Shown: positions 697 through 37,134, numbered from the stretch's first letter. The stretch: 38,784 nucleotides of DNA from Candidatus Nanohalarchaeota archaeon (GCA_017610385.1 JAFCCC010000008.1:1-38784), one strand, 5' to 3'. Notes: generated from the sequence alone by a model not told the origin. Made by a program: numbers and translations.

Positions 697-2004
697 ATGA
701 GAAACTCAAAGGGATTCAGTTTGATAACTCTTGTTTTTGTTGTTGTAGTTGTGGTAATAGGAGGAATTGCGTGGTATATGAATAATTCTATTTCGGGTCA
801 GGGAATTTCTAGAGAGATTTTGGAAAATTTTAAATTACAGAAAGTGGAATTGGAAAACGAAAACTCAATATTATACTTAGAACAGGCTCTGTGGGATTCT
901 ACTGCAAATGCGTCACAAACAGTTTCAGATCTGGCAGGAAGAAATGTGACAAATGAAACAGACACTAATTTAACATATTGGCGATGCGATTTGGATGAAG
1001 TAAGTAATTCTGGAAGAGAAGTTACATACCAAATACCATCAATTGAGCGTGTTCAATTATCTTTACAAAACAAAACTATGACCTATCTTGAAAATATATT
1101 GAATCAATTACATGGAATAAGAGATGGGGTAATTTATGATGTGGGGGGTGTAAAATGTGCAGAAGTAGGATATAATACCCCCTTAGACAGCCCTTTAAAT
1201 TCTAAATATAAAACAGCGGGTATTATTAACAAAATAGATACAACTTTTGAGAGTTACAAAAGAGAGCGTGCTAATCTAACTTTCAATGACGATATAAGAT
1301 ATAACCGCTTCTGGTATATGTATACGATTATGGCTCGTTGGACTCAGGAACAGGATATGGAATCAGACATTTTAAGTGAGATGGCCAAGGTTTATGATTG
1401 GGTTGATGACGTTGTATGCACACCTAGTTGCACATGCCCTTGTCCTTATCAACCACTTTGTACTAGAATACCAATTAATTGGAGCACGCTAGTTAGACAT
1501 GCAGTAGACAAGGGTATTGAAAAGGGTGTTAATGAATTAGAGTCTGGTTCTCGTTATTTTAATGATAATAAGATTTCTTGTGGTTATGGGATTGAAATAG
1601 ATTACTATGACAATATTCCTTATATTACAAATGCAAGAATCGGGCGTTGTGGAAGCTGGGGTCAATGGTGTCTTATGTACTGCAGATTAGATTATGAATA
1701 CAATTTTGAAGGAGATATTGATATTTCTTGCACAGATCAACAATATCAATCAATTCCAAGAAAAGATTTAGAAAGACTAAACTGGAAAATTCGTTTTAAT
1801 GTTGAAGCCACAGACCCGCCAAATGAGGGACCATTCCCACCACCATGCGATAGTTTATTGTCTGGTTCATGTAAAACCATTGAGTCTCCGGATAGACTAG
1901 GTACTGATAAATTCCCAGAATGTACTGTCACAGATCCCGAATTTAAACTTTGTGATACCGGTGTAGACACCATTGGTACTTTATGGGGTGAAAATAATGC
2001 GTAA
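697..2004 (+). CDS. Large minor-pilin-like protein with class III signal peptide and Cys-rich C-terminus
   Basis: MRNSKG|FSLITLVFVVVVVVIGG; many Cys in the C-terminal half; begins 1 nt after the previous stop. Confidence 0.7.
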   Translation: MRNSKGFSLITLVFVVVVVVIGGIAWYMNNSISGQGISREILENFKLQKVELENENSILYLEQALWDSTANASQTVSDLAGRNVTNETDTNLTYWRCDLDEVSNSGREVTYQIPSIERVQLSLQNKTMTYLENILNQLHGIRDGVIYDVGGVKCAEVGYNTPLDSPLNSKYKTAGIINKIDTTFESYKRERANLTFNDDIRYNRFWYMYTIMARWTQEQDMESDILSEMAKVYDWVDDVVCTPSCTCPCPYQPLCTRIPINWSTLVRHAVDKGIEKGVNELESGSRYFNDNKISCGYGIEIDYYDNIPYITNARIGRCGSWGQWCLMYCRLDYEYNFEGDIDISCTDQQYQSIPRKDLERLNWKIRFNVEATDPPNEGPFPPPCDSLLSGSCKTIESPDRLGTDKFPECTVTDPEFKLCDTGVDTIGTLWGENNA

Positions 2005-3571
2005 AGGAATAGCAATTCTTACTGAAATCATTTTATCTGTTGGAATTATTGCGGCAGGTGCTATTTTTTTCTTAGTGGGTTATGATTTTCTGGGACATGA
2101 AACCCAAACGGCATACAAATATACAGAATTACAATTTTTATTGGACATTGGAAATAGAATAGATACGTCATCTTCACAACTTGGAAGAACTACTGTAGAA
2201 TATCGTGTTCCTTTTGATGTTTATAGTTTAAAAGGAGAAAATAACATATTAACCTTACAAACTGCTGACAATCCCTCCCCAAGCCATACTTTATTAGAGT
2301 TCAATTTAAAAGATTTCAACATATCAGATCAAGATTATATTTGTCTTTACTTTAAAAATAAAACAGCGGTTGTTGAACCTGGAGAGTGCCCTAATTTAAA
2401 TGTTAGCGATGATTTCTGCGCAAATTTACGGTGTGTAGATGGAATTTGTACTTCAGATTACGGAGAAAACTGCTTAAGTCCAGATTGTAATTGTAGTGGA
2501 GGAATATGCCAACCACACTATAAAACAGAGTGTTTAGATTCTAAAGGGTGCGTTAAAGAAGAGTGTGTGGGTGTTTTAAACTATAGTAACACTTGTAAAT
2601 ATTCCTGGGAATGTGGAACTTTTGAAGATGATCAGATGAATTGTAAGCCTTCTAAAAATAACATATCAAATAAAGGATGTTGTCCGCCAGATGAAGTTTG
2701 GAATGGAACCCAATGTACGATTGGCTGTGTTGGAGATCCATGTGTAACGGGAGAAGAGTGTGGAACCGGTGAACAGTGTGGTACTTCTGATGATTTGGTT
2801 TGCAATCCGACAGACATTAATTTTACAGATTTTAATAAAGGTTGTTGTCCAGAAAATTTGCGTTGGAATGGAAGTACTTGTGTGGAAGCTTTGACTATTT
2901 GTAATGGTCCTCTTCCCGCAGCATTTGATTGGAGAGATAGATTAGGCAAAAATTGGTTACCACCAATTCGAGATCAAGGTCATTGTGGCTCTTGTTGGGC
3001 ATTTTCTGCTATTGGCACAATAGAAGGTGAATACCAGGTTGAATCATATAAACCAGATTCTGGAATTAATTTGGCAGAGCAAGAACTTGTTTCAAGTTGT
3101 TGTAGCTCTTGTGGTAGCTGTAGTGGGGGTTGGCCACACAAGGCGTTTAGTTATGTTAAAAGCAGTAATGTTGTAGATGAAACATGTTTTCCATACAGAG
3201 CAAGCAATATGGGATGTAATAAATGTGGTGATGCAAAAAATAAAGACTGGACCGTAAGTTCTTTCATTAGGGTAAGTGGTACACAGAATATTAAAAGAGC
3301 ATTAGCCTGTCGTGGGCCGTTATCTGTTGCATCAATGAATTGGGGGCATGCGATTGTTTTAGTTGCATATGATGATGATAGTGACATTTGTAGGGCACAC
3401 TATGGAAAAGATGGTTGTTGGGTTATAAGAAATAGTTGGGGTGTACGATCGGGAGTATTGCATGGAGGTGTGTGGCATGACAAAGGTTATGGTTATATTC
3501 CATATTCTGGTCATTCTAAGAGCGATATTGTGAATTATGTGTACTATGTAACAGATGTGAGAGAAGCATAA
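1997..3571 (+). CDS. Pilin-like protein fused to a Cys-rich stalk and a C-terminal papain-family (C1A) cysteine peptidase
   Basis: Likely start is ATG 1997 (MRKG|IAILTEIILSVG). LPAAFDWR, QGHCGSCWAF (Gln/Cys), GHAIVLVAY (His) and IRNSWG (Asn) are all intact. CCPxxxxWNGxxC repeats. Confidence 0.9.
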   Translation: MRKGIAILTEIILSVGIIAAGAIFFLVGYDFLGHETQTAYKYTELQFLLDIGNRIDTSSSQLGRTTVEYRVPFDVYSLKGENNILTLQTADNPSPSHTLLEFNLKDFNISDQDYICLYFKNKTAVVEPGECPNLNVSDDFCANLRCVDGICTSDYGENCLSPDCNCSGGICQPHYKTECLDSKGCVKEECVGVLNYSNTCKYSWECGTFEDDQMNCKPSKNNISNKGCCPPDEVWNGTQCTIGCVGDPCVTGEECGTGEQCGTSDDLVCNPTDINFTDFNKGCCPENLRWNGSTCVEALTICNGPLPAAFDWRDRLGKNWLPPIRDQGHCGSCWAFSAIGTIEGEYQVESYKPDSGINLAEQELVSSCCSSCGSCSGGWPHKAFSYVKSSNVVDETCFPYRASNMGCNKCGDAKNKDWTVSSFIRVSGTQNIKRALACRGPLSVASMNWGHAIVLVAYDDDSDICRAHYGKDGCWVIRNSWGVRSGVLHGGVWHDKGYGYIPYSGHSKSDIVNYVYYVTDVREA

Positions 3572-3599
3572 TAAAAAAGAAAATATAATAATAAAGAGA

Positions 3600-4535
3600 T
3601 TGATAATTATGAATAAAATTAGGATAATTTTGCTTGTGGGCGCATTTGTTGTTTTTAGCAGTACGGCGTTTGGATTAAATAATCCGTCACAAGTGTATTG
3701 TACTGCCATGAATTACTCATATGTTATTGAGAATATACCAGAAGGAGAAGTTGGATACTGTTATTTTAATAATGGTGATTTCTGTGATGCGTGGGATTTT
3801 TTGATTGGAACTTGTGGTATGGCACATAGTTACTGTTTAATACAAGGATATGATATTGAAACTACTACAAATATGGAGATTTGTAATTCGGAAAACGCAG
3901 AAGAACAATGCTGTGCATGTATTTTAACCAATGGAACAGCAGTGGAAGTAACAAAATTAATGGGTCTCAGCTTTGTCGAAGGAGACTGTGGGGATCTTGT
4001 TTGTGTTTTGGGGGAAACATTTGAAAACTGCCCTGTAGATTGTCCCTCAGGAGGATTAGACCTTTTTTGTGATGGTGTAAAAGACAACATATGTGATCCA
4101 GATTGTAATATTAGTGAAGATGAAGATTGCAAACCTGTTTGCGGAAATGAAAAATGTGAACAAGGAGAGACTAATAAAAACTGCCCTGTAGATTGCGCTT
4201 TAACCTCGGTGTGTGGAAATGGTGTGTGCGAATCTGATGAAAATATTACTAATTGTAATATAGATTGTGAGAAAGAAGTCAGTTGTGGAAATGGTATTTG
4301 CGATGAAAAAGAAAGTTATCAAATTTGCCCAGAAGATTGTAAATCCGGACACAAGGACTTTTTTTGTGATGCAGTAAACGATGGTCGCTGTGATCCGGAT
4401 TGCAAGAATGGAGAAGACGTAGACTGTCAAATAAAAAGAAATTCTCATTGGTGGGTATATTCGATAGTTATTCTATCAATTTTATTTAGTCTGATTTTAT
4501 TGGTTAGAAAAAGCAAGGTACGTAAAAATGCATAA
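3600..4535 (+). CDS. Secreted, membrane-anchored Cys-rich protein with N-terminal DUF333-like domain
   Basis: Sec signal peptide; NNPSQVYC...GYC...C.AWDF..G.CG resembles DUF333; repeated CG(N/D)xxCExxExxxxCPxDC and D(G/N)xCDPDC motifs; C-terminal TM helix and basic tail. Confidence 0.7.
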   Translation: MIIMNKIRIILLVGAFVVFSSTAFGLNNPSQVYCTAMNYSYVIENIPEGEVGYCYFNNGDFCDAWDFLIGTCGMAHSYCLIQGYDIETTTNMEICNSENAEEQCCACILTNGTAVEVTKLMGLSFVEGDCGDLVCVLGETFENCPVDCPSGGLDLFCDGVKDNICDPDCNISEDEDCKPVCGNEKCEQGETNKNCPVDCALTSVCGNGVCESDENITNCNIDCEKEVSCGNGICDEKESYQICPEDCKSGHKDFFCDAVNDGRCDPDCKNGEDVDCQIKRNSHWWVYSIVILSILFSLILLVRKSKVRKNA

Positions 4536-6594
4536 GAAAGGGATGGTGCAGGGATTTGTAATTGCGATGGCTGCATTTGTAATTGCTGCACTAACAATTT
4601 TTTTAGTATTTAGATATTTTTCAATGACAAGATATCCTTTAGATTCAGAACAAGTTGTGCAGGGATCTGACAAAGAAGTTGCATTTCAGTTAGCAAAATT
4701 AATTGACTATTGTTGGGAAGAAAATAATTATGGTGCAGGGAATTTAGAACAAGATTGTTTTTTAGTTACAATCAATAGTGAAAAAAATCTGAGTGCTACA
4801 TCAATTAAAAGTCAGATAAGTTATCCTCAAATAAAAATTAAATCTTTAAATTTTACTGGTGGTGAAAGCGTGAAAGCCAAAATAATTTACCATCCGGAAA
4901 ATGGAACTATTGAAATCAAAGGTTTTATGGAATTATTAAATGGTATTTGTCAACCACAATATGGAGAAGATTGCTATTTCCCAGACTGCAATTGTACAGA
5001 ATTAGGAATCAGTGATATTTGCCTGCCTTCTTATACTCCTAACAAAATAACCGCAGTAGGTTGCGTTAAACCAGACTATGTACATATCTTAAACCGTGGT
5101 TCTCAATGTAAATATAATTGGGAATGCGAAGAAGATTTAACCTGCGGGCAAACTGTTCGTTTTGATGACTTTGAATTTGCGTGTTGCCCAAATGGAACTG
5201 GGTGGAATGGAAATGAATGTATAAAATTAAAAGAAATTGGAGAAGAATGTGAAGAAACAGAAGAATGCGAAATAAATCTGAATTGCAATAATGTATCTCT
5301 AAATTTTACAGAGTATTCTAAGGTGTGTTGTGTTGGTCAAAAGCACTGGAATGGTTCTGCTTGTGTCTATGTGTATGGAGAAATATGTTTTGAGAACCAA
5401 GAATGTGATTTGGGCTTAAAGTGTAATTCAAATCCAGAAAAGACTGGAAAAAACTGTTGCCCGCCAGGAGAAAAATGGAATGGTTCTGCTTGCGAATTAA
5501 AAGAAGTTGATGTGCTGGTTGTTGCATTAAAAACCAATATGAAAAAAGTTTATTCTGATGCGGATATTGAAAACTTAGAAAATAAAGTTGACGAATATAT
5601 TTCAACAATTTCAACAACAGATGATCTTGTTGGCCTTTTTGTATATTTGGATGAAGATTTAGTAAAAAATATTATTGGCTCTAAAGTTACGAACCCAGGC
5701 GACTGGAATAATATCGATGGCATTTTAGATCAATTAATTCCCAAATTGAAAGCGAAATATTTGATTATTTTGGGGGGGTATAATCGATTTGTTCAGGCAC
5801 CAATTGGCTCTTCTCAGGGTTCAGATGACCCATATGGAGATACAGATCGAGACGGTTCATATTTACCAGATGTAAGTGTAGGAAGAATTCCAGACCCAAA
5901 TAATGGGGACCTGCAAGTACTTTTAAACGGTTTAAATACAGCTATAAGCGTACATAAAGATGGAGGTTTAACATTGGACAGTCATGTAGCACCAATAATG
6001 GGTTGCGGGGGATATGACAATAGAAATTGGAACTCTGGAAAATGTTTTTGTCAAGCCATTTGGCCATCAACTTGCGTAGCATGTGGATCCTGTTGTGGGT
6101 GCATAAATTCAGCGAGTATGTCTGGAAAAGGATTTGTAATGATTTTATCACATGGTCCAGGACCCTCTTCTACAGAACTATATAAAGGGGGGTGTTTGGA
6201 TGTCAGACCAAATTTTATTACTAGTTTAAACGTGGATACGGCGTTTTGGATTTCAATGAGTTGTGGTGGAGGTCATTTGAAATTAAAAAGTCAAACTTCA
6301 GGATCAATGGCTATGACTTTTTTAAAGAAGGGGGGTGCGATTTATGTGGGTAGCACGGATTTGAATTACGGGGGCCTAGGCGGTTGCAGTGTACCTGGCG
6401 GTGATTCTTGTATTGGTTCTCTTTACGTTGAATTTATTAAAAGATTACAAGTGGGTAAAAGTGTTGGGGCTGCCTATCGTGAAGGTAAAAACTATTATTA
6501 TGGTAGATATAACTGTGGTGCAGGCAAAAGTTACCAGACCCATATAAATTGTTTGTATGGGGATCCTACCCTAAAAATTAAAAGTATGTGGTAA
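4528..6594 (+). CDS. Pilin-like protein fused to a Cys-rich stalk and a C-terminal gingipain-like (C25) cysteine peptidase domain
   Basis: MHKKG|MVQGFVIAM signal; C25 hallmarks YLIILGG, DDPYG, VSVGRIP, SHG (His), SMSC (Cys), GAIYVGST and terminal LYGDPTLKI. Confidence 0.8.
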   Translation: MHKKGMVQGFVIAMAAFVIAALTIFLVFRYFSMTRYPLDSEQVVQGSDKEVAFQLAKLIDYCWEENNYGAGNLEQDCFLVTINSEKNLSATSIKSQISYPQIKIKSLNFTGGESVKAKIIYHPENGTIEIKGFMELLNGICQPQYGEDCYFPDCNCTELGISDICLPSYTPNKITAVGCVKPDYVHILNRGSQCKYNWECEEDLTCGQTVRFDDFEFACCPNGTGWNGNECIKLKEIGEECEETEECEINLNCNNVSLNFTEYSKVCCVGQKHWNGSACVYVYGEICFENQECDLGLKCNSNPEKTGKNCCPPGEKWNGSACELKEVDVLVVALKTNMKKVYSDADIENLENKVDEYISTISTTDDLVGLFVYLDEDLVKNIIGSKVTNPGDWNNIDGILDQLIPKLKAKYLIILGGYNRFVQAPIGSSQGSDDPYGDTDRDGSYLPDVSVGRIPDPNNGDLQVLLNGLNTAISVHKDGGLTLDSHVAPIMGCGGYDNRNWNSGKCFCQAIWPSTCVACGSCCGCINSASMSGKGFVMILSHGPGPSSTELYKGGCLDVRPNFITSLNVDTAFWISMSCGGGHLKLKSQTSGSMAMTFLKKGGAIYVGSTDLNYGGLGGCSVPGGDSCIGSLYVEFIKRLQVGKSVGAAYREGKNYYYGRYNCGAGKSYQTHINCLYGDPTLKIKSMW

Positions 6595-17311: not shown

Positions 17312-20263
17312 ATGAAAAAATTACTTGCAGTTTTATTTGCATTGATTGCTTTCATAGGTGTTGCTAGTGCGGGAATCGTTGGCTCCTATTCTCTAAAAGT
17401 TAATGTGTATGATTATTCAACTTCTCAGAGCATTATTGCAGATTCTATTTGTGTTGATAGTAATTGTGTTTACAATAAACAAAGCTATACGTTTAATGTA
17501 AACAAAGGCGATCACAATATTTTTGTTATAGAAAATAATTACAACAGTTACAGTTCTTCACTATATATCCAATCTAATTCGTTTAAGAATGTTTATTTAC
17601 AAAGCGGTTCAGGTGGTATAACTCCTGTTGAGGGATATAGTTTAACAATTAAAATTTATGATTATGATACTAGACAGCCGATTTCTGTTGATGATATCTG
17701 TGTAGATGCGAAATGTGTTCAAAATAAGCAAATATATAGTTTTAGTGTAAGCAAAGGCACACGAATGATTGCGGTTGGAGATGAAGACTATCAAAGTTAT
17801 AGTAGTTCCATATATATTCAATCTAATTCGTTTAAGAATGTTTATCTAAAACGAAATAGTTGCCCACTTCCGCCAGCCCCGGTTTGTGGAAATGGAATTT
17901 GTGAATCAGGGGAGACACAATATAATTGTCCTCAAGATTGCGGCACACCCCAAAACGAATGTCGTGATTCTGATGGAGGTTTAGACTATTACAAAAAAGG
18001 AACCGTGATAATTAGTTCGGGTAGTTGTGGCTCTTGTGAAAATAGTTATACGGATTATTGCACTAGTTCTGTTGTTTTGAAAGAGTATTATTGTTCTGGA
18101 AATAGTATGAGTTCTACAAGTTACACTTGCTCGTATGGTTGTGAGGCGGGTGCATGTAAATTACACATTGAGCCGTCTTGTGATCCACAATATTTAGATA
18201 ATTATCAATGTAGTAGAAATTGGGTACAAAGAGAATATCAGAATACAGATTGTTCTACTGTATGGAAGAATTGGGAACTTTGTGAGCATGGTTGTGAGAA
18301 TGGTGTGTGCAAATCTGAGCCACGTTGTAATGTAGACGTCTATGATTTAACTCTAAGCGATTCTGAAGTTACTGTAGGAGAAAACGTGGTTGTAAGAGCC
18401 ACTATTAAGAATACTGGTGAAAGTACTGAAAAAATCAGAGTAAGAATGTATTATAGAACGGAACGTGAAGATGTTCAGGAGTATACTCTATCACCCGATC
18501 AATCTAGAGAAATTTCTTTTGAATTAAATAACATAGTATATGCAGGCTATGTTAAAGTTGAGGCAGAGTCTTGCAATAATGTCAAAAATGCTGTAACTAA
18601 AAGAATTAGAATTGAACAGGAATCTATTGCTACTGGAGATTTAAAAATTACTGTTATGAAGGGGGTAGGTTGTGGTACAGATTGCTCTTGCGGTTCATGT
18701 GCTTCTTGTAGTTATTCTTGTGGAACTTGTGATCGAGAGTTGCAAGGTGCAAAAGTATTAATTGAACGAGAAAGTGGTGGTTATACTACCTACAAATATA
18801 CTAATTCAGCTGGAGAAGCAAGATTTTATAATCTTCCAGAAGGAACTTATGAAATTACAGTAAGCAAAAGTGGATATAATAGTATAAGAACTAATGCAGA
18901 CGTTGAAGAAAATGAAATAACATCTAAAACAATTTCATTGGCCTGCTGTGGTGATGGAACATGTTCTTTCCATGATTTAGAACTTAGAAGAATTATTTTA
19001 CCTCAAGAGATTCATGCAGGAGATTCAATTTATATTGAGAGTAGAGTGAAAAATCTTGGTGGCTGTACTGAGAAGAACATAAAAGTAAGTGTGACTGCAT
19101 TTGGACAAACTAAAACTTCGGATGTTTTTTCATTAGGGAAAAATAATGAAAAAAGTGTTTTATTACAATTTAATATTCCTTCAAATTATTATGGCCATTA
19201 TGCAGTAATATCTCGGGTTTGGAATTCAAATGATGAAGATGTTTTGGAAACAGATGCGTTTGTTTCAGAAGTTCGTGCTATTTTAAAATTAGATCCTTCG
19301 ACGGTTCATGTTAATGAATCGGTTCATGTTTATGGATACATTAAAGGAAAGAGCTCAGCTAAATTATATTTGGGAAATAGATACATTAGAAAAATTTATA
19401 CAGATAGTAGGGGATATTATTCAACATATATAACACCAAAAGTTCCTGGCAAACTCTCTGTAAGTTTAAAAGATAGTTCGTTTACAGTAAGCAAATATCT
19501 GACGGTTATTGCCGATTTATGGATTAAAAATATTGAATTAAAGGAGATGGTTGCTGTTGGAGAAAGCTTTAGTGTTTGTTCGGTTATTGAAACTACAAAA
19601 ACAGGTTATGTAACAGTAGGCTTGTATGTGGATGGAATTAAATACACACAAACAAGACCCTATATTATAGGTTCTAAAAATGTTTGTATAACTACAAAAA
19701 TTTTGGAAAAAGGGCATAAAGAAATTCAAATTGTTGCAGCTCAAGATGATAAAAGAGATGAAATTAGTGGTAAAATAGAAGTCATTAAACCAAACACAGA
19801 AGTTTTGGTTGTACCAAAGAATCTAATGATTGAACAGGGGAAAGATGGTTTATTAAAAATTGTTGTAACAAACTCGGACCCAATTGAAAAAGAATATGTT
19901 GTTTCAATTAATTACATGGATCAAGTAAGTATAGACATTCCTGTTGATTCAGCAAGATTAACTCAGTACGAATCTAAAACATTTTATGTAAATTTAAATC
20001 CACATAAAAAAGGAGAATTTAACAGTATTGTAACTGTTAAAGCAGATGACGTAATTTTAAAAGAAATTCCAATTAAGTTATATACTTCACAACAGTATCT
20101 TTCTTGGAATGAGAAAGTCAGTATGTTTTTTCAAAGAGCGGGGATACGTGCTGGTTTGGTAACTGGAATAATTACATTGGCATTGATTGTTATTGTAATT
20201 ATTATTTCCATATTGTATGTAGGATTTTTTAGGGTAAAACCAATGGAACCACATTACAAATAG
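17312..20263 (+). CDS. Large cell-surface protein (duplicated PEGA-like domains, Cys-rich repeats, CARDB/Ig-like domains, C-terminal TM anchor)
   Basis: Signal peptide; two near-identical N-terminal units ending YIQSNSFKNVYL; CGNGICESGETQYNCPQDC; C.DSDGG.DYY.KG; ATIKNTG and GTYEITVSKSGY; TM near C-terminus. Confidence 0.85.
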   Translation: MKKLLAVLFALIAFIGVASAGIVGSYSLKVNVYDYSTSQSIIADSICVDSNCVYNKQSYTFNVNKGDHNIFVIENNYNSYSSSLYIQSNSFKNVYLQSGSGGITPVEGYSLTIKIYDYDTRQPISVDDICVDAKCVQNKQIYSFSVSKGTRMIAVGDEDYQSYSSSIYIQSNSFKNVYLKRNSCPLPPAPVCGNGICESGETQYNCPQDCGTPQNECRDSDGGLDYYKKGTVIISSGSCGSCENSYTDYCTSSVVLKEYYCSGNSMSSTSYTCSYGCEAGACKLHIEPSCDPQYLDNYQCSRNWVQREYQNTDCSTVWKNWELCEHGCENGVCKSEPRCNVDVYDLTLSDSEVTVGENVVVRATIKNTGESTEKIRVRMYYRTEREDVQEYTLSPDQSREISFELNNIVYAGYVKVEAESCNNVKNAVTKRIRIEQESIATGDLKITVMKGVGCGTDCSCGSCASCSYSCGTCDRELQGAKVLIERESGGYTTYKYTNSAGEARFYNLPEGTYEITVSKSGYNSIRTNADVEENEITSKTISLACCGDGTCSFHDLELRRIILPQEIHAGDSIYIESRVKNLGGCTEKNIKVSVTAFGQTKTSDVFSLGKNNEKSVLLQFNIPSNYYGHYAVISRVWNSNDEDVLETDAFVSEVRAILKLDPSTVHVNESVHVYGYIKGKSSAKLYLGNRYIRKIYTDSRGYYSTYITPKVPGKLSVSLKDSSFTVSKYLTVIADLWIKNIELKEMVAVGESFSVCSVIETTKTGYVTVGLYVDGIKYTQTRPYIIGSKNVCITTKILEKGHKEIQIVAAQDDKRDEISGKIEVIKPNTEVLVVPKNLMIEQGKDGLLKIVVTNSDPIEKEYVVSINYMDQVSIDIPVDSARLTQYESKTFYVNLNPHKKGEFNSIVTVKADDVILKEIPIKLYTSQQYLSWNEKVSMFFQRAGIRAGLVTGIITLALIVIVIIISILYVGFFRVKPMEPHYK

Positions 20264-20335
20264 TTTACATAGTATTACTTAATAGTGGGAAAAATGCATA
20301 GTTATATAAATTTTATCACTTATTAGGTACTATAA

Positions 20336-22084
20336 ATGATTAAAATGAAATTCAGATTATTAACTTTGTTCATATTTGGTATATTACTAATTAGCATAGT
20401 TGGTGCTAGCAAGGCCCAATTAGATTTGTTTCCAGATAAATCATCTGCATGTCCAACTCATACAGCATATTTTGAATTAAGTGTACAGAACATAGGTCCT
20501 GTACAAGACACATATCAAGTTACTTCTTCACAACCAGATATTATTACTATTGCACCAGATATGATTACATTAAACGCTGGTGAAATTTATAAGGATCCTC
20601 ATGTTTGGTATACTCCCAAAACAACTACTGAGCCAGGAAATTATGATTTTACATTGTATGTCACTTCAATGGCGACTGGTGAAAGATACAGCATTGATGG
20701 TTCAATTGAAGTTTTAGCATGTCATGATGTAGATATTACTCCAGTGTCCTCTGTTATGGTCGGTTGCATTGCAGAAAAATCTACATTAGATTTAATAATT
20801 TCTAATTCTGGACGAGATACTGAAGATTTTGTTTTAGATACCAATTATGGAAAATTAAGTCAATCTGAAGTTTCTCTGCAGCCAGGAACATCTGAAACAA
20901 TAACATTAACCGCACAAGGAACAAAAATCGGAAGCAGAGATATTCGAGTTACAGCACAATCAACTACATCTTATGCATATGAAACAAAGGTTATTGCATT
21001 ACAAACTGAAAAATGTTATGACTCAGCAATAATTGTCGCTCCAGAAAGAAATGAAATTTGTGCTGGAACAGAAGGATCATTTTCAGTTGTTGTGAGAAAT
21101 CTAGGAACAAAAAGTGATACTTTTATTTTAAGTTCAACTGGTGGCAGACTACAAACAGATTCACTAATTGTAGCACCAGGCGAAAGTAAGGAAACTCAAT
21201 TATACTTTACTCCAGATGAATTAAAGACTTATGAAATTACAATAAATGCGATTGGCAAAACAGAAAGCGAAGATGTTGTTACTGCGGTAGGTGCAAATTG
21301 TAAAAACGTTGCGGTTCTGTTAACGCCATCTGAACGGTCTATTTGCGAAACAGATAAAACAGATTACACAGTAATGGTTCAAAATACAGGTAAAGTTGCA
21401 GATACTTATGTATTAGTAAGCAACATTGGAACATTAGGAAAGACAAGTGTTTCTTTAAATCCTGGAGAAGACGAAACCGTAGACTTACAAGTTGATGGAA
21501 GAAAATTAGGAAGTGGAACACACATTATAAAAGTAAGAGCAAAATCTATGTTTATTAGCACTGTTAGAGATTACTCTGAAGTAAAATTGACTGTGGAAAA
21601 CTGCTATGACTTGAACATGAATGTAAATCCTACTGAAGCGCAGATTGATGCGGGAGATGGATTGCTGTTTGAAGTTACTTTACAAAACACAGGGAGTATG
21701 GAAAATACATATCACTTGAATCTTCAGGGTCCGGCATGGGCCTCATTAAAACCAAGTGATGCGACATTGGCTCCAGGAAAAAGTAAAGTGGCATATGTTT
21801 ATGTTGCAGCACCGTTTGAAATTGCGGGAAACTTTGATATAAAAATTATGGCAGAAGATCAAAGTGGAACCATTCAAAAGGTTAAAACAGTTACAGTTTC
21901 AATCGGAGAAATGAATCTTCCGGAGCAAATTCCATCTGTGAAGCCATTCTTTGAAACAGTTAGAATGTGGTGGAATACGATTGTTAACGCATTCGCCAGC
22001 ATTGGTCTGGTGTGGGGAATTGTGATTTCAATTGGTGCAGGATTGATCATTGTTAGTGCAATTATTTGGAAAGAAGTTCGATAA
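20336..22084 (+). CDS. Cell-surface protein with five tandem Ig-like (CARDB/NEW3-type) domains and C-terminal TM anchor
   Basis: Repeated (V/I/L)xNxGxxx(D/E/N) ... (L/V)x(A/P)G(E/T/K) units; signal peptide; terminal hydrophobic helix. Confidence 0.8.
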   Translation: MIKMKFRLLTLFIFGILLISIVGASKAQLDLFPDKSSACPTHTAYFELSVQNIGPVQDTYQVTSSQPDIITIAPDMITLNAGEIYKDPHVWYTPKTTTEPGNYDFTLYVTSMATGERYSIDGSIEVLACHDVDITPVSSVMVGCIAEKSTLDLIISNSGRDTEDFVLDTNYGKLSQSEVSLQPGTSETITLTAQGTKIGSRDIRVTAQSTTSYAYETKVIALQTEKCYDSAIIVAPERNEICAGTEGSFSVVVRNLGTKSDTFILSSTGGRLQTDSLIVAPGESKETQLYFTPDELKTYEITINAIGKTESEDVVTAVGANCKNVAVLLTPSERSICETDKTDYTVMVQNTGKVADTYVLVSNIGTLGKTSVSLNPGEDETVDLQVDGRKLGSGTHIIKVRAKSMFISTVRDYSEVKLTVENCYDLNMNVNPTEAQIDAGDGLLFEVTLQNTGSMENTYHLNLQGPAWASLKPSDATLAPGKSKVAYVYVAAPFEIAGNFDIKIMAEDQSGTIQKVKTVTVSIGEMNLPEQIPSVKPFFETVRMWWNTIVNAFASIGLVWGIVISIGAGLIIVSAIIWKEVR

Positions 22085-27132: not shown

Positions 27133-27286
27133 CGTCGGGGATGGGATTTGAACCCACGTGATCTTGCGATCATCAGGTATTTACGCAATATTTTTATAAA
27201 AGACATTTATTATAAATGTCATATTTGGTGTGCACAGACACCCTACTTAGCAACCTGACGCAATGGCCGGACTATGCGACCCCGAC
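27133..27286 (-). tRNA. tRNA-Ser(GCT) with 69-nt intron at 37/38; CCA not encoded
   Basis: Acceptor GTCGGGG/CCCCGAC, discriminator G, anticodon stem TCAGG/CCTGA, loop TT-GCT-A|A, long variable arm TGATC-GCAA-GATCA, T-arm GTGGG-TTCAAAT-CCCAT; mature length 85 nt. Confidence 0.95.
27179..27247 (-). other. tRNA intron with BHB motif
   Basis: Central helix UUGC/GUAA flanked by 3-nt bulges UA|A and AU|A. Confidence 0.9.
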
Positions 27287-35652: not shown

Positions 35653-35786
35653 TTGTTTCATTTCTTAAGAACAATGTATGAATGTATCAAAAAAGAAAGT
35701 TAGATAAACTATGTTCTATAAAAATAGGTTATACTCTAACAAAGAGTTGTATGGCTCTTATCACAAAATATGCGAGGTAACTAAAG

Positions 35787-37134
35787 GTGGATGAAATACC
35801 AGAAAAGGTAATTATAATGGGTGCTGCAGGAAGAGATTGAATATAAGATGTGTCTTTTGTTCCTCTTATTCCATAACTTCAACACTCATTTTAGGAATAA
35901 TAAAAGGTATAAGGTAATTTGTTTTACTGCCACACAGATTCCAGATATCTCTGGAAGAAAATATCCAAAAGAGCTTGCTGGTAAATTATATCCTTTTGGT
36001 ATTCCAATTTATGCAGAAAGTGAGTTATCAAAATTAATTGAAAAATATGATGTAGATAAAGTTGTTTTGGCATATTCTGATTTGAAATATGAGGATGTTA
36101 TGCACAAAGCATCATTGGTTTTATCTTTGGGTTCTGATTTTGAACTAATTGGTCCAAAAAATTCTATGTACAAATCAGAAGTTCCTGTAATCTCTATTTG
36201 TGCTGTAAGGACGGGTTGTGGTAAGAGTGAAACAACGCGTTATATTGCAAATTTATTGAAATCATTAGGGAAACATGTGGTGGTTATTCGTCATCCGATG
36301 CCTTATGGAACTTTGAAAGAACAAAGGATTCAACGATATGAAACCTTAGAGGATTTAAAAAAATATAAATGCACCATTGAAGAAAGAGAAGAATATGAAC
36401 AGCACATTAAAGAAGGAACTATTGTTTATGCTGGTGTGGATTATTATGATATTTTAAAAGAAGCTGAGAAAGAAGCAGATATAATATTGTGGGATGGGGG
36501 CAATAATGATTTTTCATTTTATTATTCTGATTTGAAAATTGTAATTGCGGATCCGCATCGAGCTGGAGATGAAATTGCATATTATCCAGGAGAAGTTAAT
36601 TTGAGAATGGCAGATATTATTCTAATTAACAAAGTAAGAACTGCTGAAGTTGAGAATATTGAAAAAATTAAAAATAATATTAATATTTATAATCCAAATG
36701 CAGAAGTTTTAGAAACAGAGTCTAAAATTTCTTTGGATAAAAAAGTGGATTTAAAAGATAAAAGAGTGCTGGTTATTGAAGATGGACCAACACTAACTCA
36801 TGGAGGAATGAAATATGGTGCTGGTTTTATTATAACTAAACGAAGTGGGGCACACATAATCAATCCTAATTTGTATGCTAAAGGAGAAATTAAGAAAATT
36901 TTAAAGAAATTTAAATTAGAAAATATTGTTCCTGCAATGGGGTATTCTAAAAAAGAAATTATAGACTTGGAAAGAACAATTAATGCTTCTGCATGTGATT
37001 TTGTTGTAGATGCATCTCCAGTTAATTTAAATTCAATTTTGAAAGTGAATAAACAGATTATTCAAGTGAAATATAATTTAGAACTTGTTGATGGAAATTT
37101 GGAAAAATTAATTGTGGAAAAACTAAAATTATAA
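35787..37134 (+). CDS. Spliced CDS join(35787..35837,35869..37134), 438 aa: COG2403-type P-loop GTPase family (cDPGS-like; probable arginine synthetase ArcE-like)
   Basis: SD GAGGT at 35774-35778 then GTG 35787. Exon 1 MDEIPEKVIIMGAAGRD joins exon 2 FHNFNTHFRNN..Y.V.CFTATQIPDI.GR.YP. Also AVRTGCGKS, IRHPMPYG, WDGGNND and EDGPTLTHGGM. The track's GTG 35821 N-terminus is an artefact of reading through the intron. Confidence 0.9.
35838..35868 (+). other. 31-nt bulge-helix-bulge intron in an mRNA
   Basis: GGA/UCC exon helix, AGAG/CUCU 4-bp central helix, bulges AU|U and UA|U, 10-position intron stem with one mismatch; excision restores frame and motif. Confidence 0.9.

Follow-up and report, generated by a model that had tools for sequence, protein, structure and literature searches.

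Analysis of a 38,784-nucleotide (nt) stretch of DNA from a Candidatus Nanohalarchaeota archaeon (GCA_017610385.1, JAFCCC010000008.1:1-38784), hereafter called the window and numbered from its first letter, indicated that a gene of the COG2403 type is interrupted close to its 5' end by 31 nt. The gene codes for a 'predicted GTPase' resembling cyclic-2,3-diphosphoglycerate (cDPG) synthetase, and the insert at 35838-35868 divides its conserved N-terminal motif GAAGRD|FHNFN. This insert is very probably an intron within the coding sequence, delimited by a motif of the bulge-helix-bulge (BHB) type and spliced by the tRNA splicing endonuclease EndA and the ligase RtcB. The original prediction had proposed just such a messenger intron, and the recurrence of inserts at the same site in 22 genomes, the cut rule and the covariation of the central helix H argue strongly for it. 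The features of the locus are as follows.

35787..35837, plus strand: predicted exon 1, 17 codons from GTG 35787 to GAT 35837, encoding MDEIPEKVIIMGAAGRD
35829..35872, plus strand: hBHBh' motif (outer helix h, bulge, central helix H, bulge, inner helix h'), read from the sequence; -10.5 kcal/mol; shuffle control 0.0013; covariation over 22 homologous sites
35838..35868, plus strand: putative intron of 31 nt, with predicted cuts after 35837 (5') and after 35868 (3'); contains in-frame TGA and TAA
35869..37134, plus strand: predicted exon 2, 421 codons and a stop; COG2403 'predicted GTPase' / cyclic-2,3-diphosphoglycerate-synthetase-like

Reading of the frames showed that the length of the insert leaves a remainder of 1 on division by three and shifts the frame by +1, in agreement with the original prediction that 31 nt with in-frame UGA and UAA would break the gene. 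The TGA at 35838-35840 directly follows the last codon of exon 1. Exon 2 opens at TTC 35869 with FHNFN and continues through 421 open codons as far as the stop at 37132-37134. For exon 1, the first start codon past an in-frame TAA (35778-80) is GTG 35787, which has GAGGT 9 nt upstream of it, and ATG 35817 is an alternative start. The exon 1 peptide fits the conserved N-terminus (V/I)(I/L)xMGAAGRD of the homologues.

The RNA around the insert conforms to the strict hBHBh' form. The outer helix h has 3 bp (G35829-C35872, G35830-C35871, A35831-U35870) and the central helix H consists of four Watson-Crick pairs (A35832-U35866, G35833-C35865, A35834-U35864, G35835-C35863) placed between two 3-nt bulges on opposite strands, 35836-38 and 35867-69. 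The inner helix h' joins 35839-48 to 35853-62 with nine of ten possible pairs, a U35844/U35857 mismatch and a UGUG loop at 35849-52. The coordinates of the original prediction proved correct to the base and each of its pairs, both bulges and the loop are present; its intron stem was likewise found, with the mismatch that it had left unmentioned, and its caveat that the exon helix has only 3 bp (35829-31/35870-72) is accurate. In-silico cuts after the second base of each bulge regained both the reading frame and GAAGRD-FHNFN. The 31-mer occurs once in the genome and is no copy of its own flanks.

A search of a large protein collection with exon 2 returned 8000 homologues (E <=1e-158 for the 120 listed), the closest of those listed being 78% identical and the remainder 57-62%. 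Where named, they are a 'predicted GTPase', a 'GTPase' or a 'cyclic 2,3-diphosphoglycerate synthase'. The best homologues belong to metagenome-assembled genomes (MAGs) of Aenigmatarchaeota and Nanoarchaeota, which together with the 0.79-Mb size of the source genome accords with the DPANN-like host named in the original prediction. Exon 1 joined to exon 2 gives the N-terminus of the homologues, with full-length similarity to the family including GAAGRDFHNFN. Nine full-length homologues begin with a few residues followed by (V/I)(I/L)xMGAAGRDFHNFN, and exon 1 provides exactly the part that exon 2 is without. A distant match only was obtained to a cDPG synthetase structure (PDB 9sxb, E 4.5e-8, residues 53-388), no Pfam family reached 1e-3 for the host protein and no NCBIfam match reached its cut-off; the enzymatic role is therefore only predicted, and the label 'metabolic' that had been given to the protein is a guess at the level of the family.

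Two different proteins have been called at the locus in public records. One, N-truncated, has 344 aa and is recorded on two contigs, of which one has 232,170 nt; the other, of 437 aa and with a false N-terminus, was called from the window's own 38,784-nt contig. The latter begins with the spurious sequence MLQEEIEYKMCLLFLL... because the frame of exon 2 is open for 16 codons upstream of the putative 3' splice site (35821-35868, beginning at GTG 35821). The truncated call is what the original prediction had expected of gene callers, and the 437-aa miscall comes in addition; genes of this kind would thus be misannotated by standard gene calling.

Inserts at the same codon boundary in other genomes

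Comparison with homologous loci revealed that 22 genomes, the window genome (G000) and 21 others, have inserts of 14-31 nt at this very codon boundary, and these carriers span three DPANN phylum-level groups, those of G000, G070 and G471. The original prediction had described GAAGRD-FHNFN as a family motif that is split in this gene, and the motif was indeed found uninterrupted in nine of nine full-length homologues, at all 11 loci taken from relatives within the order and at 31 of another 32 loci on public metagenome and genome contigs. The remaining locus (L034), which is that of G070, a MAG titled Nanoarchaeota archaeon, carries a 14-nt insert at the same boundary. No locus more than 61% identical to the window's gene was returned by the related-locus scans.

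A degenerate pattern search of 70 genomes from its own phylum-level group matched G000 only, while the same kind of search of 401 genomes from the phylum of G070 (Nanoarchaeota in the record title) revealed a second carrier, G368. A protein search of these 401 genomes with an intact homologue (P0004) located the gene in 39 of them; 38 were assessable, G403 being left out of the count as a contig end cuts its gene, and six of the 38 carry an insert (G070, 14 nt; G368, G213 and G132, 20 nt each; G168, 26 nt; G454, 27 nt). In the phylum of G471 (Aenigmatarchaeota in the record title) the P0004 search located the gene in 155 of 371 genomes. A match there was flagged if it started at query residues 12-15 or contained a stop, and 15 of the 16 flagged loci are interrupted at the same boundary, by 14-31 nt. 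Stop-free matches from query positions 1-10 were counted as uninterrupted in the phylum samples, for the third phylum on the strength of the match itself, and the numbers of carriers are minima because in-frame inserts without a stop escape flagging.

All 22 inserts would be disruptive if left unspliced: 17 shift the frame, and each of the five in-frame ones contains a stop. Cutting after the second base of each bulge, the EndA rule by which the original prediction had rejoined GAU|UUC and the motif, regained G[AG][AG]GRD[FY][HQ] in 22 of 22 interrupted genes. In the first seven carriers, for which the whole gene region was fetched, exon 1 has a start codon and the motif, and exon 2 is intact with 421-427 codons. 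For 11 of the 15 carriers in the phylum of G471, about 450 nt were fetched and exon 2 was read for its N-terminal part only.

Inserts with compensatory pairing at this site in orthologues had been named in the original prediction as something to look for, and the 21 further genomes supplied them. Alignment of the 22 sites indicated that 96.8% of 218 pair cells hold standard pairs, against 37-60% with the 3' partner slid by 1-3 columns. All 88 cells of helix H are paired, as are 92.4% of those of helix h and 96.9% of those for the first three pairs of h', although the inner helix has just 1-2 bp in some homologues (G070, G798). The covariation score was 0.518 compared with 0.160 in shuffles, and none of 500 shuffles scored as high. 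The rows of the alignment are related, which inflates these shuffle statistics; the slid-partner control retains the relatedness and still fails completely.

Compensatory change was observed at six of the ten pairs, which vary on both sides (43 cells). Within H, the pair at alignment columns 18-48 is CG in eight rows, AU, GC and UA in four each and UG in two, and the pair at 16-50 is CG in 14 and AU in eight. The exon strand of H is made up of the Arg codon and the first base of the Asp codon, and the combinations of exon and intron strands are AGAG/CUCU, AGGG/CCCU, CGUG/CACG (or CGCG with a G-U pair) and CGCG/CGCG. The intron strand therefore tracks whichever synonymous Arg codon the exon uses (AGA, AGG, CGU or CGC). 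This comparative evidence can be regarded as decisive for a BHB intron, while the motif alone proves little.

Two observations were made on individual genomes of these samples. The G070 MAG has about 2.3 Mb, compared with 0.5-1.9 Mb for most of its group (one other has 2.1 Mb), and its interrupted gene lies on a 4.2-kb contig; the bin may be mixed. In G771 (L032/L101; CP070801.1, a Candidatus Aenigmatarchaeota archaeon chromosome), the sixteenth of the flagged loci, there is no insert at GRD|F, and an in-frame TAA occurs in the middle of the gene (...VVINK*STSG...), which could be due to a pseudogene, a sequencing error or something else.

Splicing enzymes and tRNA introns of the source genome

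The source genome (0.79 Mb, 18 contigs designated C1-C18, 93.5% complete) contains one EndA gene, identified at C13:61589-61870 by PF01974 with 97.7 bits, above the Pfam cut-off. It is a 181-aa open reading frame (ORF) with both EndA domains, which can be aligned over its full length with 1a79, a homotetrameric enzyme. RtcB is encoded at C9:33031-34329 (531.6 bits). Six tRNA genes of the genome show H with four of four pairs beside a helix h of at least five pairs, at the intron boundary given by ARAGORN or no more than 2 nt from it, so that the same bulge cut rule matches the tRNA intron boundaries. These tRNA introns are 13-177 nt long and include two 13-nt mini-introns almost without an inner helix. 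The cbf5 gene of the genome is uninterrupted. One of the intron-containing tRNA genes lies in the window itself.

27133-27286, minus strand: tRNA-Ser(GCU) carrying a BHB intron of 69 nt in the canonical place, with 7 bp in h and 4 bp each in H and h'; found by Rfam (37.6 bits) and by ARAGORN in intron mode

In its default mode ARAGORN reported no tRNA in the window and missed this tRNA-Ser(GCU). With introns allowed it gave only 27 tRNA genes for the whole 93.5%-complete genome, and introns that are non-canonical or multiple may conceal many more; several intron-mode calls have no BHB where the boundary is placed and are possibly wrong. According to one report, homotetramer-type EndAs with an extra loop occur in several DPANN lineages and are tied to a larger number of disrupted tRNA genes (PMC5829648).

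The structure of the motif, its register with the codon boundary and its conservation and covariation in 22 genomes are observed, as is the presence of genes for both enzymes. Given how EndA and RtcB are known to act, the transcript would be expected to be cleaved and religated, with the intron closing into a circle, in the following way. Exon and intron bases of the primary transcript would pair as h, H (4 bp) and h', with a 3-nt bulge on either side of H, and EndA, 181 aa long and of the homotetramer-like type, would cut after the second base of each bulge. RtcB would then join GAU (Asp) to UUC (Phe), giving GAAGRD-FHNFN in a protein of about 438 aa, and the intron would be released, probably as a circle. 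Unspliced RNA would yield only a peptide of 17 aa, as the original prediction had stated, provided that GTG 35787 is the start.

Chance, rival explanations and evolution of the insert

Shuffling of the 31 nt with the exons held fixed gave H with four of four pairs and h' of at least the observed length in 0.13% of 20,000 shuffles, and the corresponding controls for the first seven loci gave 0.0013, 0.012, <5e-5, 5.5e-4, 3.5e-4, <5e-5 and 6e-4. The motif of the window, taken alone, is weak evidence and only moderately beyond chance. Chance is unlikely to place a BHB in exact register with an insert that homology delimits, and once the 21 homologous inserts are added a chance origin is excluded. 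Rfam gave no match at 35700-36000.

Several observations weigh against the proposed splicing. Helix h has only 3 bp in the window, and its first pair is mismatched in five of the 22 homologues. Constrained to the BHB, the RNA folds with -10.5 kcal/mol; the unconstrained minimum free energy (MFE) is -11.8 kcal/mol in a shifted register, 1.3 kcal/mol better. The local fold is not unusually stable compared with shuffles (MFE z = -1.3), and MFE folding by itself did not single out the BHB. Minimal BHBs, defined by H of 4 bp with no more than one G-U pair, h and h' of at least 3 bp and introns of 14-150 nt, are common by chance, 13,599 of them occurring in the 788-kb genome. Those that join ORFs numbered 512, against 496-529 in controls with the 3' cut shifted by 1-2 nt, and the short-intron subset of this census likewise showed no excess over the shifted-cut controls. 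The genome-wide BHB scan advocated by the original prediction was thus powerless when run motif-first, and therefore no claim is made on further interrupted genes in the genome. EndAs of the homotetramer type are described as strict (PMC5829648), while some homologous introns are almost without an inner helix (G070, 14 nt); the window motif itself is strict. With coupled transcription and translation, ribosomes on the unspliced RNA could compete with the folding. Finally, the closest orthologue, P0002 (77-78% identical), carries no insert, and the grouping of six carriers in one clade is rejected by the approximately unbiased (AU) test (39 rows, LG+G4; p 2e-38), the tested group having been named after inspection of the tree. 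Since the carriers are scattered as well, many losses, gains or transfers have to be assumed.

The insert-free orthologue and the abundance of minimal BHB motifs, together with the stop that closes the unspliced frame after 17 codons, would also suit a gene inactivated by a recent small insertion, with the BHB-like fold a coincidence. Such a pseudogene is nevertheless very unlikely. The downstream decay by which, according to the original prediction, a pseudogene would betray itself was not seen: the 421 codons of exon 2 are intact, and distant homologues share 57-62% identity with it. The insert recurs at exactly the same codon boundary in 21 other genomes, in which exon 1 is intact and exon 2 is complete in the six read fully and open as far as read in the rest, and independent decay would not yield an intron strand of H that covaries with the exon. 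That the insert might be a spurious 31-mer of one metagenome assembly is suggested by its length, 31 nt being a common assembler word size, and has a practically negligible probability: it duplicates neither its flanks nor anything else in the genome, the N-truncated call comes from two contigs and the 437-aa call separately from the 38,784-nt contig, and 21 other assemblies carry different inserts of 14-31 nt at this site. Group I and group II introns and inteins were ruled out, inserts of 14-31 nt being far too short for any of them; a mobile repeat was ruled out by the uniqueness of the insert in the genome, and excision at the DNA level by the two boundaries, which share 1 nt only.

Two further explanations dispense with splicing. 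Ribosomes might skip it, either by bypassing in the manner of phage T4 gene 60, whose gap reportedly has a stop after the take-off codon followed by a hairpin, or by programmed frameshifting. The window does have a stop directly after the last exon 1 codon and then a hairpin; bypassing, however, requires a landing codon that matches the take-off codon GAY, and the insert ends in GAY in only two of 22 cases and in TTA in the window. A +1 or -1 shift cannot yield lengths of 14-31 nt in all three phases, and bypassing has no need of a conserved 4-bp helix with two 3-nt bulges locked in register to the codon boundary, which leaves translational skipping hardly probable. The other explanation takes the structure as a conserved regulatory hairpin, uncut or cut without religation, with a protein that starts inside exon 2 and is without GAAGRD. 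HVO_1309 was first reported as cleaved by EndA, with ligation unproven (PMC10485636), and the in-frame GTG 35821 does open a 437-aa ORF. An exon 1 that was never joined to exon 2 would decay, yet its start codon and motif are kept in 22 of 22 carriers; the GAAGRD motif is nearly invariant in uninterrupted homologues, bacterial and archaeal, and RtcB is encoded, so a hairpin of this kind is credited with a very small probability.

For the putative intron, the sequences contain some evidence on descent. Ungapped comparison of the window intron with two further 31-nt introns showed 20 of 31 positions identical to G492 and 19 of 31 to G490, both from the phylum of G471, and these introns are therefore probably homologous and not of independent origin. 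A quick maximum-likelihood tree of 75 exon 2 proteins scattered the carriers, and its starred branches force at least four changes; the trees leave out G454 and the 15 carriers of the third phylum. The scatter, the AU test and the likeness of the introns point either to an ancient intron that was lost precisely on repeated occasions or to the gene, or its 5' end, having been transferred. On this evidence the intron family appears to be old, common to three DPANN phylum-level groups, and lost or moved many times.

The protein tree also grouped the window gene with P0002 and with G001, a relative from the same order, far from a clade of the other ten loci of that order (families f3 and f5). This split placement suggests two origins of the gene within the order, possibly by horizontal transfer.

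Known systems, possible consequences and the window neighbourhood

In the full-text literature, with subscription journals and supplements outside the scope, no intron was found described in a COG2403-type gene and no coding-sequence BHB intron in DPANN archaea. The kind of element is already known, namely BHB introns in archaeal mRNAs; the host gene and the DPANN coding-sequence case appear to be new. A pre-mRNA intron of cbf5 in Crenarchaeota was reportedly described by Watanabe in 2002. Very few instances of spliced protein-coding RNA are on record for archaea. The cbf5 (archaeal dyskerin homologue) intron occurs in the crenarchaeal orders Desulfurococcales and Sulfolobales (Yokobori 2009, PMC2738675), a 2020 paper names cbf5 as the only reported case beside its own one in a 5' untranslated region (UTR) (PMC7714728), and that paper and a 2023 review give cbf5 and the HVO_1309 leader as the cases of archaeal mRNA splicing, the review expecting more (PMC7714728, PMC10485636).

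The resemblance to cbf5 is close. In that report, a short BHB intron at one conserved site of a coding sequence is removed by the tRNA splicing endonuclease, is patchily distributed through lineage-specific loss and leads to wrong gene predictions (PMC2738675). The host gene differs, as do the hosts, Crenarchaeota there and three DPANN groups here. By the accounts given of it, the cbf5 motif is often relaxed and tied to a heterotetrameric EndA; the motif in the window is a strict hBHBh', and the one EndA gene of its genome is homotetramer-like. For cbf5, experiments have shown the splicing that is predicted for the window intron. HVO_1309 of Haloferax volcanii likewise appears in two sources as an mRNA substrate of the splicing endonuclease outside Crenarchaeota that is recognised by its BHB (PMC7714728, PMC10485636). 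Its intron, by those accounts, is in the 5' UTR and no frame is rebuilt, whereas the putative intron of the window breaks a coding sequence and would destroy the protein unless removed.

The introns of pre-tRNAs, those of the source genome included, share the motif geometry and the cut rule. Their outer helix is the 5-bp anticodon stem of a folded tRNA, while that of the window has 3 bp and is formed by Gly and Phe/His codons. Outside archaea, HAC1 and XBP1 lose an intron without the spliceosome through an endonuclease and an RtcB-type ligase, and the frame of the product is altered. This is the unconventional IRE1/RtcB splicing of eukaryotes named in PMC13149111. It would have in common with the window an mRNA intron removed by an endonuclease and an RtcB-type ligase with no spliceosome. 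It differs in the endonuclease, in twin stem-loops instead of a BHB and in being a regulated stress response.

If spliced as proposed, the inserts would represent a second family of coding-sequence BHB introns, in a different gene and in DPANN archaea. The 22 natural variants form a covariation series that could define what the endonuclease needs in an mRNA context, the motif offers a short defined substrate (about 45 nt) for DPANN splicing endonucleases, and the question is raised how precise loss or gain of an intron occurs in archaea.

The BHB lies 12-50 nt past the start codon and is built from Gly-Arg-Asp and Phe-His codons, so that a loaded ribosome and a folded BHB should be mutually exclusive. 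It is conceivable, though rather doubtful, that the intron is no mere relic that the cell tolerates, that it gates expression, and that it is the first case to come to light of a broader class, namely BHB introns which gene callers overlook in the protein genes of DPANN archaea. Synthesis of the enzyme would in that case hinge on the tRNA-splicing capacity of the cell, and retention in three phylum-level groups over a long divergence would reflect selection.

The neighbours of the interrupted gene are ordinary archaeal genes. Upstream lies an ADP-forming acyl-CoA synthetase-like protein and further downstream Hsp20, and elsewhere in the window aRF1, ribosomal protein P1, TYW2 and AlaRS are encoded. 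Peptidase domains of the papain family (C1) and of C25 are encoded by adjacent genes at 1973-6591, plus strand. At 17312-22081 lie the genes of large proteins that carry Ig-like, CARDB and PEGA domains and are probably located on the cell surface. On the minus strand of contig C8, near position 63231, a frame of about 4834 codons is followed by a stop and then by a frame of 323 codons, and a BHB of chance level bridges both; the longer frame is a giant-protein gene typical of small symbiotic archaea.

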